This document shows positions 10,836-18,782 of a DNA stretch of 24,982 bases, piece after piece. Location of the stretch: NCBI GenBank assembly GCA_031430295.1, contig JANPBE010000570.1, positions 1-24,982 of the forward strand. The letters are read 5' to 3'. A model generated the notes under the pieces. The model ran no database searches and was not told the DNA's origin. It was given only the letters and a program-made list of their open reading frames with translations. The translations under genes and the position numbers were made by a program. Positions within the stretch are counted from its first letter, which is position 1. The number at the start of each line of letters is the position of its first letter. Source of the DNA: Phyllobacterium sp. GTDB taxonomy: Bacteria; Pseudomonadota; Alphaproteobacteria; Rhizobiales; Rhizobiaceae.

Positions 10836-11960
10836 CTATTTGGCGAACCCGTCAAAGAACTCTTTCATGCTGGCGAAAAAGCCGCTGGATTGCGGGCTGT
10901 TTTCTTTGGAGGATAATTTTTCAAACTCCTCCAATAATTCGCGCTGGCGATGGGTCAATTTTTGCGGAGTTTCGATGTCAATCTGAATGTAGAGATCGCC
11001 CATGACAGTTTGACGAAGCACGGGCATGCCCTTGCCTTTGAGGCGGAACTGTTTGCCATATTCTGTGCCTTCGGGAACTTTGACCCGTGTTTGTGTTCCA
11101 TCCAATGTTGCCACTTCAAACTGACCGCCAAGGGCTGCGGTCGTCATCGAAATGGGGACTTTGCAATAAAGGTCCGCGCCGTCGCGCTGGAAGAAGACGT
11201 GCGGCTTGATAGAGATGAAAATATAAAGATCGCCCTGCGGCCCGCCGCGAACACCAGCTTCACCTTCGCCTGTGAGGCGGATGCGTGTGCCATCCTCGAT
11301 ACCGGCCGGAATGTTGACTGATAGGCTGCGCTCTTGGGTAATCTTGCCTTGGCCGGAGCACTTAGCGCACGGGTCTTTGATAATCTGGCCGCGGCCATTG
11401 CATGTCGGGCAAGCGCGCTCGACAGAGAAGAAACCTTGGGAGGCGCGAACACGCCCCGCCCCGCCGCACGTGTTACAAGTCGTTGGCTGCGTGCCGGGTT
11501 TTGCGCCTGTGCCGGAGCAGACATCGCAAGTAATGGACGATGGCACGCGCACTTGCGCGGTTTTGCCGGCAAATGCTTCTTCCAGCGTCACTTCCATATT
11601 CTAGCGCAGGTCCGCGCCGCGTTCACGGCCATTCGACTGACGACGGCCACGGCCGCCCATCATCTCGCCAAAAATATCTTCGAAAATATCAGCAAAACCG
11701 CCGCCGCCGCCAAAACCTTGAGCGCCGCCGCCGCCATTTTCAAACGCGGCATGGCCATAACGATCATAGGCAGCGCGTTTTTGCGGGTCCTTCAACGTCT
11801 CATAGGCTTCGTTGAGCTCTTTGAATTTGCCTTCCGCGCTGGCATCGCCCTGATTGCGGTCCGGATGATATTTCATTGCCAGCTTGCGATAAGAAGCCTT
11901 CATCGCTGCATCGTCGGCGCCTTTGGCAACGCCAAGCGTCTCGTAATAGTCAGCCTTCAT
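10836..11960 (-). pseudogene. dnaJ: Chaperone DnaJ interrupted by one in-frame TAG at 11601-11603 (nonsense allele or sequence error)
   Basis: J-domain with HPD and G/F region (11601-11960) and four CxxCxGxG repeats plus C-terminal domain (10836-11597) are in the same frame; junction reads [17 protein letters not shown] where DnaJ has GADLRYNME. Confidence 0.9.
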
Positions 11961-16217: not shown

Positions 16218-17612
16218 TCAGCCCATCACACCAGCTTCCTTCATATGCTTAGGCAAAAAGAAGTCGATGATGGCGAATAGCACAACGGCGATACCCGTCA
16301 GCGGGAAGGCCACGCACACCAAAATGCCAATCACCAGAATGGCCTTCGGGATGCGATAATCGCGCGGGTATTGTGGCGCGCTTAGTGTGCCGACAGTACG
16401 GCGCTTCCACCACATCACCACGCCGGAGACGCTGAGGAAAATGATACATAAGCAAAACACAGTGTTAAGCAGCGTGTTCCAAAGCCCGAGATTGCCTTGG
16501 TGCAGCGCAATGCCTGCGGCCATGCTTTTACCGGCGAGACTATAATCGGCAAAGCCAACATCGGCCAGAACCTTGCCGGTATATTGGTCGATGTGGACTG
16601 TATGATCGCCAAACGGATTGGCTGTATCGCCATCCATTGAGTCAGCTGATACGGTGAAGACGCCCTCTACGCCATCTGGAAGGTTGACGCGGAACTGGCC
16701 ATCAAAGCCGAAGGTCTTGGCGAAATCTGCCACTGTATTGAGATTGACCGGTTGGCCTGCGGGGACGCCAGTGACACCGGCCTGCGAACCAGAGGCGGGA
16801 AGTTTTGTCTGCTCCAACGGCCACGGCACTTCCTTCAAGGCACCGCCATTTAATGTCGCCATGGTTTTGTCTGACAAAGGCACATTATCAAATTTGGCGC
16901 TGGGAAATGTGCTCCAAGCCTGCACATATTTAGCGCCCCATATACCGGTCCATGACATACCAGTGATGAAGAAGAACAGCAAAACAATGGACAACCAAAA
17001 GCCTATGGACTTGTGCAGCTCGCGCCACAGTGCGCGGCCTTTGAGCGACAGGCGTGGAAGCAATGCGCCCGCAATGCCGCGACCATCGCGTGGCCACCAG
17101 AGATAACAGCCGGTTATGACGAGAATGATACCAAGGCCTGCCGCTACTTCTAAAATGCGGTCGCCAATAGCGCCGATCCACATGGTGCCGTGCAGCCCGC
17201 TGGCCCAGTTGAACCATGTGTTATCGCGCGAATAGCTGGCGAGAATTTTGGGTCCATGCGGATCGACAACGACGACAGTTTGGGCCTCGCCAGCCTTGAC
17301 GATGAAATAGCTGGCGATATCATCGCTTGGAGGACTGACAAACAATGACACCTTGCCGCCCGGCACTGATGTCTTTGCCGCCAGTGCTTGGGCAATGGCG
17401 CTGGCGCGTTCCCCGCCTGAGGCGACGTGATATTTTGGCCCTAAAAATGTGTCGATTGAATTACCATAGAGCATGATGAGGCCGGTTAAGGCCAAGAATG
17501 TTAAAAACGGAACGACAATAAGTCCGGCATAAAAATGCCAGCGCCAGACGGCGCGATACAGTTTAATGCCAAAGGCGGACGGTGTGTCCGTGGCAAAAGT
17601 GGTAGTTGTCAT
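16218..17612 (-). CDS. PepSY-associated TM-helix domain protein (probable heme-binding inner-membrane metal reductase/uptake component)
   Basis: VWRWHFYAG, LHGTMW, TGCYLWWP, ELHKSIG, ALHQGNLG, SGVVMWWKRR pattern with periplasmic PepSY-like loops. Confidence 0.9.
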   Translation of the reverse strand: MTTTTFATDTPSAFGIKLYRAVWRWHFYAGLIVVPFLTFLALTGLIMLYGNSIDTFLGPKYHVASGGERASAIAQALAAKTSVPGGKVSLFVSPPSDDIASYFIVKAGEAQTVVVVDPHGPKILASYSRDNTWFNWASGLHGTMWIGAIGDRILEVAAGLGIILVITGCYLWWPRDGRGIAGALLPRLSLKGRALWRELHKSIGFWLSIVLLFFFITGMSWTGIWGAKYVQAWSTFPSAKFDNVPLSDKTMATLNGGALKEVPWPLEQTKLPASGSQAGVTGVPAGQPVNLNTVADFAKTFGFDGQFRVNLPDGVEGVFTVSADSMDGDTANPFGDHTVHIDQYTGKVLADVGFADYSLAGKSMAAGIALHQGNLGLWNTLLNTVFCLCIIFLSVSGVVMWWKRRTVGTLSAPQYPRDYRIPKAILVIGILVCVAFPLTGIAVVLFAIIDFFLPKHMKEAGVMG

Positions 17613-17685
17613 GGGAATTCCCCTTGAAAATAATACAAAGCAACCGCCTCAGAGAACGAGGGCGGCCATGGTTATGTGATTATGT

Positions 17686-18084
17686 TCAAAGGGATAGGGG
17701 CGGTGCGCGGGCAGGGTTATTAGTTCGGCCTGTTTGCGAGACAAGGCGCAGTTCATCGGCGTGAAGCAACTGCCCACGAGTGGTTTGCGGTGCCAGAAGC
17801 GCCAGGACCACGGGCTCTGCAACCGCGCCAAGCGCGGAAACCATGCTGCCGGGCAGGCAGTTCTGGCACGGCCATTCCTTATCCCGCTTGCCGCGATGGT
17901 CGCCCACAGGATCGGCGTAGCTGGAGCAGATGGAACTGCCGGTGAGTTCCGCGATACTGTCAGCGGAAGTAATAGAAGGGCGCGGCAGTAGCGCAAAAAG
18001 TAGCGGCAACAGCAACAACACCGTTGCCAAAGTGGCAAAAGCGCGGCGCGTGACACGTAGCTCTTTTAAGAATCCGCTGTTCAT
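17686..18084 (-). CDS. DUF2946-like leader protein (TM/signal segment, Cys motifs, C-terminal RAPP)
   Basis: GAGGGA RBS before ATG 18084; hydrophobic LATVLLLLPLLFALL, ICSS, CQNC, ends NNPARAPPLSL. Confidence 0.78.
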   Translation of the reverse strand: MNSGFLKELRVTRRAFATLATVLLLLPLLFALLPRPSITSADSIAELTGSSICSSYADPVGDHRGKRDKEWPCQNCLPGSMVSALGAVAEPVVLALLAPQTTRGQLLHADELRLVSQTGRTNNPARAPPLSL

Positions 18085-18179
18085 TGGTCCCTCAATGATC
18101 ACAGCGGTAAGGCATTCGGCGCGCTAAGGAAAGCCGGAAATCGTCATAGGTTGTGAAATAGATTTACACGGGAACCGCA

Positions 18180-18192
18180 ATGTTGCTAACAT
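18180..18192. promoter_or_regulatory. Palindrome ATGTTGCTAACAT overlapping the putative -10 of the TA operon (candidate autoregulatory operator)
   Basis: 5-bp arms; TTTACA (18163-18168) and TAACAT (18187-18192) could be -35/-10. Confidence 0.4.
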
Positions 18193-18219
18193 GTGCACAA
18201 AGCCACAAAGGGTAATTCC

Positions 18220-18480
18220 ATGAGCGATACAACAGTGACAGTGCGCCTCAGTCAGGATTTGAAAAACCGGCTGGATGCGATTGGTTCGGTAACGCGGCGT
18301 TCGAAGTCATTTCTGGCTCATGAGGCAATTGCCAACTATGTCGAAACAGAAGAAAAGATGATTGCGGGGATTTTGGAAGCGCAGGCGCAGATAAAGCAGG
18401 GGCTTGGCGTTTCGCATGAGGATGCCATGACACGCATCCGCGCCCATATTCAAAAGACCGCAAAAACTGAAGCGGCGTGA
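18220..18480 (+). CDS. Ribbon-helix-helix (CopG-type) antitoxin
   Basis: TVTVRLSQDLKNRLDAI...RSKSFLAHEAIANYV = beta-alpha-alpha RHH; overlaps the toxin start. Confidence 0.85.
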   Translation: MSDTTVTVRLSQDLKNRLDAIGSVTRRSKSFLAHEAIANYVETEEKMIAGILEAQAQIKQGLGVSHEDAMTRIRAHIQKTAKTEAA

Positions 18481-18782
18481 TGCGTACCATCATCTGGGCA
18501 CCGAGGGCGTTAGAAGACGTGGAAGCCCACATTGACTACATTAATGAGCGCAGCCCGATGGGCGCCGATTTAATTTCTGATAGGCTCGGGGATGCTGTGC
18601 TCAGTCTGCGCGATATGCCCACAGGCAGGCCTGGAAAAGTGCCGGGAACTTATGAGCGCTATGTTCGCAAGGCCTCGCTTATCATTGCGTTTGAGCTTGT
18701 TGACACTGACCGGCTGATAATTCTACGCGTCATTCACGCAGCGCGCGATTGGCCGGATGGGCAGTGGCCCAAGGAAGACTAG
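18477..18782 (+). CDS. Type II toxin, RelE/ParE family
   Basis: IIWAPRALEDVEAHIDYI, GRPG, ILRVIHAARDWP; about 100 aa; start GTG 18477 or ATG 18480. Confidence 0.85.
   Translation: MMRTIIWAPRALEDVEAHIDYINERSPMGADLISDRLGDAVLSLRDMPTGRPGKVPGTYERYVRKASLIIAFELVDTDRLIILRVIHAARDWPDGQWPKED

Follow-up and report, generated by a model that had tools for sequence, protein, structure and literature searches.

A diverged CruR/CutF-like leader with a RAPP motif and the predicted masking of a PepSY_TM ribosome-binding site in Phyllobacterium sp.

The contig JANPBE010000570.1 of Phyllobacterium sp. (assembly GCA_031430295.1), of which the whole stretch of 24,982 nucleotides is called the window in the following, carries on its minus strand a small open reading frame (ORF), the leader, followed by a gene for a PepSY_TM protein. 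A first-pass annotation had described a 132-aa ORF with a hydrophobic N-terminal segment, the motifs ICSS and CQNC and the C-terminal residues ARAPPLSL, placed 73 nt before the PepSY_TM gene, and all of these elements are present. The leader is probably a regulatory leader of the CruR/CutF (DUF2946-like) class, which forms a two-gene unit with the PepSY_TM gene and in which translational arrest would unmask the Shine-Dalgarno (SD) sequence of that gene, copper being the most likely signal. We infer the arrest itself, its ligand, its polarity and the compartment of sensing.

Organization of the locus

The leader and the PepSY_TM gene lie on the same strand, and the 73-nt gap between them ends at the PepSY_TM ATG (17612). 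The SD sequence of the PepSY_TM gene, AAGGGGA, is located 6-7 nt before this ATG. The positions of the features are collected in Table 1.

Table 1. Features of the leader and PepSY_TM unit in the window
Feature	Position	Strand	Basis or remark
Leader SD, GAGGGA	18088..18093	-	Read from the sequence; 3 nt between SD end and ATG
Leader ORF, protein P0001	17686..18084, including stop codon	-	ATG start at 18084; 132 aa
Predicted hydrophobic export signal or N-in/C-out anchor, codons 15-33 (A15-L33)	17986..18042	-	Hydropathy
Cys53 codon (ICSS, residues 52-55)	17926..17928	-	Invariant in 12/12 subfamily members and 68/68 leaders
C73-Q-N-C76, candidate metal-binding CxxC	17857..17868	-	Cys73 invariant in 68 leaders
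R126-A-P-P129, putative arrest motif (CGC GCA CCG CCC)	17698..17709	-	R126, P128 and P129 invariant
5' arm of predicted masking helix, UCCCUUUGAA (Ser131, Leu132, stop, one further nt)	17685..17694	-	Predicted fold
Inner GC-rich hairpin, -11.8 kcal/mol	17642..17667	-	Flagged terminator-like; clamp for the long helix or weak intrinsic terminator
U-rich run behind the inner hairpin, UUUGUAUUAUUUU	17629-17641	-	
3' arm of predicted masking helix, UUCAAGGGGA, with PepSY_TM SD AAGGGGA	17619..17628	-	Identical in two close relatives (L003, L005)
PepSY_TM gene, CrpH/FoxB-like putative haem-dependent periplasmic metal reductase	16218..17612	-	464 aa; PF03929, E 5e-60

The PepSY_TM gene is the single gene of its kind in the whole genome. 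The predicted structure of its product (predicted local distance difference test, pLDDT, 67) matches that of FoxB (7ABW), a haem-dependent siderophore reductase, in a fold search with E 2e-11 and template modelling (TM) scores of 0.51/0.63, and a sequence search of the PDB with the protein gave no match. Four histidines, His26, His141, His200 and His371, are invariant in the ortholog alignment and are placed near helix ends; the CrpH subfamily of PepSY_TM proteins is characterised by four haem-ligand histidines, two per membrane face.

Upstream, the pair is flanked by a divergent ParD/ParE pair and downstream by a convergent queG, so that the unit consists of two genes. The absence of a TonB-dependent receptor, pointed out in the first-pass annotation, holds: none is found in the unit, and the two TonB-receptor matches of the genome are on other contigs.

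The leader protein

A word-indexed homologue search retrieved only close relatives of the leader, and an exhaustive phmmer search reached a small subfamily at 26-45% identity. Altogether the homologues span 26-95% identity, and the motifs are invariant among those at 26-45%. In the comparison with the two close relatives L003 and L005, which share 87-89% protein identity with the leader, third codon positions hold 42 of the 58 and 40 of the 62 nucleotide differences, and 37-40 codon changes are synonymous as against 14-17 non-synonymous ones. This third-position bias indicates that the reading frame is under purifying selection. The family alignments show hardly any variation at Met1. The bias and the conservation of the motifs led to the rejection of a spurious ORF as an explanation. 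No sigma-70-like promoter for the leader was found in 18085-18200.

The hydrophobic segment A15-L33 comprises 19 residues, reaches a Kyte-Doolittle 15-residue mean of up to 2.8 and is preceded by the basic residues K7, R10, R13 and R14. The positions invariant in the 12-sequence subfamily alignment include R13, L24, P27 and P34 of the N-terminal region, C53, P99, R126, P128 and P129; C73 and C76 are nearly so. The RAPP motif is followed by three residues, LSL, and the stop codon TGA, and it is separated from the CxxC motif by 49 intervening residues. This spacing is 48-49 in nine of the 12 subfamily members, and in the other PepSY-linked leaders it ranges over 39-49, most often being 45. With the ribosome at the arrest point, 52-55 residues would separate the CxxC from the peptidyl-transferase centre.

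Directly behind the CxxC comes a second stretch, of moderate hydrophobicity, residues 80-99 (SMVSALGAVAEPVVLALLAP; 17785-17845, minus strand; Kyte-Doolittle ~2), whose end is 29 residues short of the arrest point at Pro128. Many leaders have a short hydrophobic patch behind the Cys motif, and it could be a source of arrest-releasing force.

A homologous pair in another genome of the same genus (G001; L006/L007) is disrupted. Its leader has an in-frame TAG after '...PRPSIA' as well as a frameshift, and its PepSY_TM gene is cut off after ~105 residues, behind which unrelated genes follow. Unless this is an assembly error, the two genes seem to decay together.

Occurrence of the leader and PepSY_TM pair

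Using PepSY_TM protein alignment as the anchor, 80 orthologous loci were fetched (45-64% identity), mostly from Alphaproteobacteria with some from Burkholderiales. In 69 of the 80, the PepSY_TM gene is preceded by a same-strand ORF that ends in RxPP and a short tail, mostly of 1-6 residues. The survey of leader-PepSY pairs called for in the first-pass annotation thus shows a recurrent arrangement, and this recurrence also agrees with its suggestion that the PepSY_TM gene alone is the regulated unit. The tail after RxPP has a mode of three residues (42 of 74 loci), the leader stop codon is TGA in 68 of 74, and the median gap to PepSY_TM is 69 nt over the same 74 loci. In all subfamily loci that were read, the leader comes first and PepSY_TM follows after 63-73 nt.

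An alignment of 68 PepSY-linked leaders has a mean column identity of 16%, and its invariant columns are just C53, C73, R126, P128 and P129. Cys76 is present in just 33 of them; the remaining 35 have no CxxC and keep two distant Cys residues. In the CxxC-less leaders (alignment A3, L025-L101) one Cys lies 44-48 and another ~70-79 residues before RxPP. Leaders of the Roseobacter group carry an extra His-rich tail, 'FTHHTAGFHWRYDARGPP', and one leader (L095) ends in STGPPSAI and has no Arg.

Several PepSY_TM orthologues have no RxPP leader. They include the closest ones (64% and 59% identity), from Mesorhizobium sp. BR1-1-16 and a Hyphomicrobiales metagenome-assembled genome (L023 and L024, 2230-3000), where the gene sits ~120 nt behind a Sco1/SenC-like gene (FGFTHCPEVCPTTL). 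In L058, which likewise has no leader, PepSY_TM is preceded by a PCuAC-like gene that has a Met/His-rich tail. In four loci from Hydrogenophaga and Rhodoferax (L053, L057, L062, L102) the RxPP leader is replaced by an ORF of 164-347 aa with a His-rich end (...HGKHKH, ...HGQHKH, ...AAAHKH).

Copper-related genes recur in the vicinity of the pair. A divergent PCuAC gene adjoins the leader and PepSY_TM in four subfamily loci (L008, L012, L013, L014), a Sco1/SenC-like or PCuAC-like gene is found directly upstream of the closest leaderless orthologues, and related leaders stand before PCuAC-like and YcnI-like genes. CrpH, the PepSY_TM protein of the Bordetella cruR operon, is induced by copper starvation and supports haem-copper oxidases; it needs its His ligands and is independent of the TonB receptor CrtA (PMC13038864). 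Copper is the most likely signal. This had been the best guess of the first-pass annotation, which gains from the copper-chaperone neighbours, and we still infer the metal itself.

Pairing of the leader 3' end with the Shine-Dalgarno sequence

The last codons of the leader are predicted to form a stem-loop that sequesters the SD of the PepSY_TM gene, in the manner of CutF, with UCCCUUUGAA pairing to UUCAAGGGGA. The 5' arm begins 9 nt downstream of the Pro128 codon's first base. Positions 17612-17697 fold as one long helix of -29.7 kcal/mol, with z = -2.5 for the fold in the window against shuffles. Enclosed in it is the inner hairpin, which begins ~19 nt after the leader stop. The U-run behind this hairpin is inconsistent in distant homologues. 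The hairpin is read as clamping the long-range helix, or at most as a constitutive weak terminator. A regulated terminator as the main mechanism was rejected, since a ribosome positioned at RAPP or at the stop would not reach the hairpin.

The same SD-masking logic is seen in every subfamily locus, with differing sequences. With at least five minimum-free-energy pairs between the leader 3' end and the SD window taken as the criterion, masking is found in 65 of 74 loci, with a mean of 8.1 pairs compared with 4.6 when the 5' arm is shuffled. Counted from the opening nucleotide of the first Pro codon, the SD-pairing arm has a median span of +8 to +15.5 nt. The pairing was assessed by shuffles and by the energies of matched versus mismatched arms in place of covariation counts. 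Matched arms give -12.1 and mismatched arms -8.6 kcal/mol (Wilcoxon p = 5e-11), where the phylogenetic relatedness of the loci makes the p-values overstate the support. When the set was cut down to 12 loci with less than 60% identity between the first Pro codon and the start of PepSY_TM, matched arms gave -11.8 and mismatched arms -8.3 kcal/mol, and the observed mean was not reached in any of 5000 permutations of the labels. Together with the two Cys and the RxPP as the sole invariant columns, the predicted masking supports the proposal of the first-pass annotation that the ORF is a Cys-containing arrest leader of the CruR/CutF type.

Masking is also predicted for bona fide PF11162 (DUF2946) leaders taken from a sample of 300 other Pseudomonadota genomes (L105-L134), where it is found in 20 of 23 with a mean of ~7.8 predicted pairs versus ~3.7 after shuffling. 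It is found in all 12 of the PF11162 leaders that precede long ORFs, most of which have a signal-peptide-like N-terminus and are likely TonB receptors. Since 20 of the 23 are masked, SD masking by the leader 3' end is probably, on these computed folds, general in the wider PF11162 family. No discussion of such masking was found in the CruR paper (PMC9426467).

Relationship to known arrest leaders

CruR (Bp2923) of Bordetella pertussis, a Pfam DUF2946 protein, heads the operon cruR-crtA(bfrG)-crpH(bp2921) (PMC9426467, PMC12914433, PMC13038864). Members of its family are defined by a signal for export, a CxxC with a semi-conserved Cys upstream of it, a RAPP motif about three residues from the C-terminus and a CxxC-RAPP spacing of 45 +/- 2, and they form the first gene of copper-related operons with 'TBDT- and/or PepSY_TM' genes, TBDT being a TonB-dependent transporter (PMC9426467). 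The leader of the window is likewise a small first ORF before a putative CrpH-type PepSY_TM gene, with a putative export signal, a semi-conserved Cys upstream of a CxxC, RAPP exactly three residues from the C-terminus and a copper-related neighbourhood. It differs from the CruR operon in lacking an intervening TonB receptor gene ahead of PepSY_TM, in a fully structured spacer of 73 nt (162 nt with a rut site in CruR) and in the predicted control, which would be translational, by masking of the SD, rather than Rho-dependent. The CxxC-RAPP distance, 49 residues, and the sub-threshold PF11162 score further set it apart.

With CutF of Rhodobacter capsulatus (cutFOG; PMC9973294; 10.1101/2025.02.05.636593) the leader shares Cys motifs, a short intergenic spacer and, putatively, export. 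In CutF, which acts in cis only, stalling in the leader melts a stem-loop that shields the SD of the next gene. CutF has a CxxxC motif, an EF-P-dependent PPP repeat, a multicopper oxidase target (detoxification) and a copper-induced stall, whereas the window leader has CxxC and RAPP, its reductase-like target has a link to copper acquisition, and its own last codons and stop make up the anti-SD.

SecM, ApdA and ApdP are arrest peptides of the RAG/P and RAPP kind (PMC10951233, PMC7897499, PMC12992588). They share with the window leader the C-terminal R-A-P-P core and an N-terminal export signal, putative in the window leader, and their arrest is coupled to the exposure of a downstream ribosome-binding site. 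Their function, however, is the monitoring of Sec/YidC activity and they precede sec genes, in contrast to a leader with Cys motifs before a metal-reductase-like gene.

The first-pass annotation had also called for a PF11162 search. The match covers the profile over its full length (positions 3-117 of 117), but its score of 14.9 bits (E 0.045) does not reach the gathering cut-off of 23.7. In the subfamily, ten of the 12 members match weakly (best E 8.5e-5), and the profile matches 51 of the 68 PepSY-linked leaders at E <= 0.1 (best E 8e-9). When ten PepSY-linked leaders were scanned one by one, only that of Hydrogenophaga (36.7 bits) was above the cut-off, so Pfam searches bound to this cut-off miss at least the other leaders scanned. 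Since the leader has the features of CruR apart from the spacing, its export signal being putative, and its PF11162 score is sub-threshold, it is treated here, on sequence grounds, as a putative diverged member of the CruR/CutF class and not as a canonical PF11162 protein.

Proposed mechanism

During synthesis of the leader, the signal or anchor at its N-terminus would engage the export machinery and the Cys53/CxxC region would emerge from the ribosome. A ribosome arrested at RAPP would cover the next ~13-15 nt, which comprise the Leu-Ser-Leu codons and the stop. These nucleotides are otherwise predicted to pair with the SD AAGGGGA in the helix that closes the whole 73-nt spacer. The arrested ribosome would thus sit exactly on the anti-SD arm, leaving the ribosome-binding site free, by the logic known from SecM and CutF (PMC9973294), and the PepSY_TM reductase would be made. 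Upon release of the arrest the leader would be completed, the helix would re-form and translation of PepSY_TM would be turned off. The need for the stalled ribosome to occupy the anti-SD arm may explain why RAPP is held 2-3 codons from the stop. The position of ribosome arrest on CruR itself has been shown by toeprint (PMC12992588), and the shielding of an SD by a stem-loop is known for CutF (PMC9973294).

The most likely polarity is that of CruR: with copper scarce the ribosome would be stalled and the gene ON, and copper bound to the Cys motif would release the arrest and turn it OFF. RAPP and RGPP motifs arrest by default and resist EF-P (PMC12992588), which makes this polarity more likely than that of CutF. 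PepSY_TM proteins of the CrpH type help to supply haem-copper oxidases with copper, which points the same way. Sensing has been proposed to be cytoplasmic for CruR and has been shown to be periplasmic for CutF.

Several observations weigh against this interpretation. The PF11162 score given above is below the cut-off, and in an hhalign comparison of the subfamily profile with one bona fide DUF2946 member, the Hydrogenophaga leader, only the RxPP tail was aligned. The CxxC-RAPP spacing of 49 falls outside the 45 +/- 2 of CruR, and in Bordetella CruR an insertion five residues long markedly lowered the response to copper (PMC9426467). CruR itself works by Rho-dependent termination and not by SD masking (PMC9426467). 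Concerning the RNA, MAFFT followed by RNAalifold on 12 spacers found no helix in a common register; this is because the anti-SD/SD pairs slide between loci, so that covariation cannot be counted pair by pair. Part of the pairing is compositional, with pyrimidine-rich tails and purine-rich SDs, and even mismatched arms give -8.6 kcal/mol; the downstream start codons were assigned heuristically and partly by SD quality, and the loci are related. The sequencing runs in which the locus was found are DNA metagenomes only, with no RNA run among them.

Alternative explanations

The same leader might act on transcription, as CruR does, either through a stalled ribosome that blocks Rho or through the inner hairpin and UUUGUAUUAUUUU working as an intrinsic terminator, with SD masking secondary. 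CruR uses Rho-dependent termination (PMC9426467), and the hairpin with its U-run is flagged as terminator-like. The spacer, however, is short and almost fully base-paired, and with 19 C against 15 G it is not C-rich and is therefore a poor rut site. The hairpin, ~19 nt past the stop, is outside the reach of the ribosome, whose position would thus not gate it, and the U-run is unconserved in distant loci where the SD pairing is conserved; transcriptional control is consequently regarded as unlikely. A different departure keeps the SD masking and inverts the response, so that metal binding in the periplasm would induce the stall and PepSY_TM would be ON in metal excess. CutF offers the same stem-loop and SD logic (PMC9973294; 10.1101/2025.02.05.636593), and the predicted export signal of the leader and the end of its second hydrophobic stretch 29 residues before the arrest point would be compatible with it. 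That the stall of CutF depends on an EF-P-dependent PPP, as opposed to the EF-P-resistant default arrest of RAPP and RGPP (PMC12992588), that copper starvation induces CrpH together with its operon (PMC13038864), and that the neighbours are copper-delivery chaperones (PCuAC, Sco) and not efflux or detoxification genes render the CutF polarity rather improbable.

The signal could also be something other than copper: a different thiophilic metal, or else the redox state (thiol or disulfide) of the exported Cys pair, where the formation of a disulfide would give the pulling force. Ni/Co genes are associated with some CutF-like clusters (PMC9973294), RAPP/RGPP upstream ORFs (uORFs) are also found before DsbA and thioredoxin genes (PMC12992588), and the CxxC is absent from the 35 leaders with two distant Cys only. 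Given the copper-specific chaperone genes that flank the pair in several loci and the response of the characterised relatives to copper, a signal of this kind appears doubtful and quite improbable. Lastly, the small protein may be mainly a stable exported partner of PepSY_TM, a copper-binding accessory or a means of substrate delivery, with the RAPP tail and the helix tuning the stoichiometry. The purifying selection on the whole ORF in the close relatives and the joint loss of leader and PepSY_TM in G001 would fit this possibility. It is nonetheless very improbable, as the leaders have no conservation past five residues, CruR and CutF are rapidly degraded and undetectable in vivo (PMC9426467, PMC9973294), and the closest orthologues of PepSY_TM function with no leader.

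Beyond the preferred reading of a CruR/CutF-class leader whose arrest unmasks the SD, a wider generalization may be put forward tentatively. Masking might be the general output of RAPP/RGPP Cys-leaders in Pseudomonadota, including those before TonB receptors, with the Rho control of Bordetella as a special case. The subfamily, with its spacer 3-4 residues longer and its hydrophobic patch 29 residues from the arrest site, might couple release to the partitioning of the nascent chain into the membrane and not to simple copper-induced folding. This generalization is speculative and is thought less likely than not to hold in full.

Significance

The locus is no new kind of system. The class has been published (CruR in 2022, CutF in 2021-2025), CrpH was characterised in 2026, and the arrangement of a leader before a PepSY gene is mentioned in PMC9426467 and catalogued in PMC12992588. 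The novelty implied in the first-pass annotation is therefore not sustained, as PepSY-domain genes are already among the targets enriched for RAPP/RGPP uORFs (PMC12992588). The pair of the window belongs to these catalogued uORFs, which stand before PepSY-domain, PCuAC, YcnI and TonB-receptor genes.

What is new is a sub-threshold alphaproteobacterial branch with a spacer of 48-49 residues and a quantitative case, built on predicted pairing, for SD masking by the leader's own 3' end as a rule in PepSY_TM-linked leaders. This branch, found in freshwater-sediment metagenomes, would escape PF11162 searches at the gathering cut-off. The survey of PMC12992588 left the mechanism open, and the present analysis documents a conserved SD-masking helix for the PepSY_TM-linked set. 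To the question raised there, how RAPP arrest controls downstream metal genes, the locus offers a testable answer in the form of a stalled ribosome on the anti-SD. Since the unit is made of just two genes and a 73-nt spacer, it provides a compact model for metal-dependent arrest release and for the regulation of CrpH-type putative copper reductases.

Other observations

The divergent pair upstream of the leader (18193-18782, plus strand) consists of a ParD-like protein (ribbon-helix-helix, weak match) and a ParE toxin (PF05016, E 1e-12). A promoter-like site for this pair, at 18163-18192, lies within the 108-nt divergent region that it has in common with the leader, and the same neighbour is found in L003.

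The sole PCuAC gene of the genome (L103, contig C365) has no leader; a HupE/UreJ-like membrane protein is encoded after it and a small toxin-antitoxin-like pair before it. Elsewhere in the window (10836-11960, minus strand), two adjacent ORFs of 253 and 119 aa are parted by one stop codon at 11598-11600.

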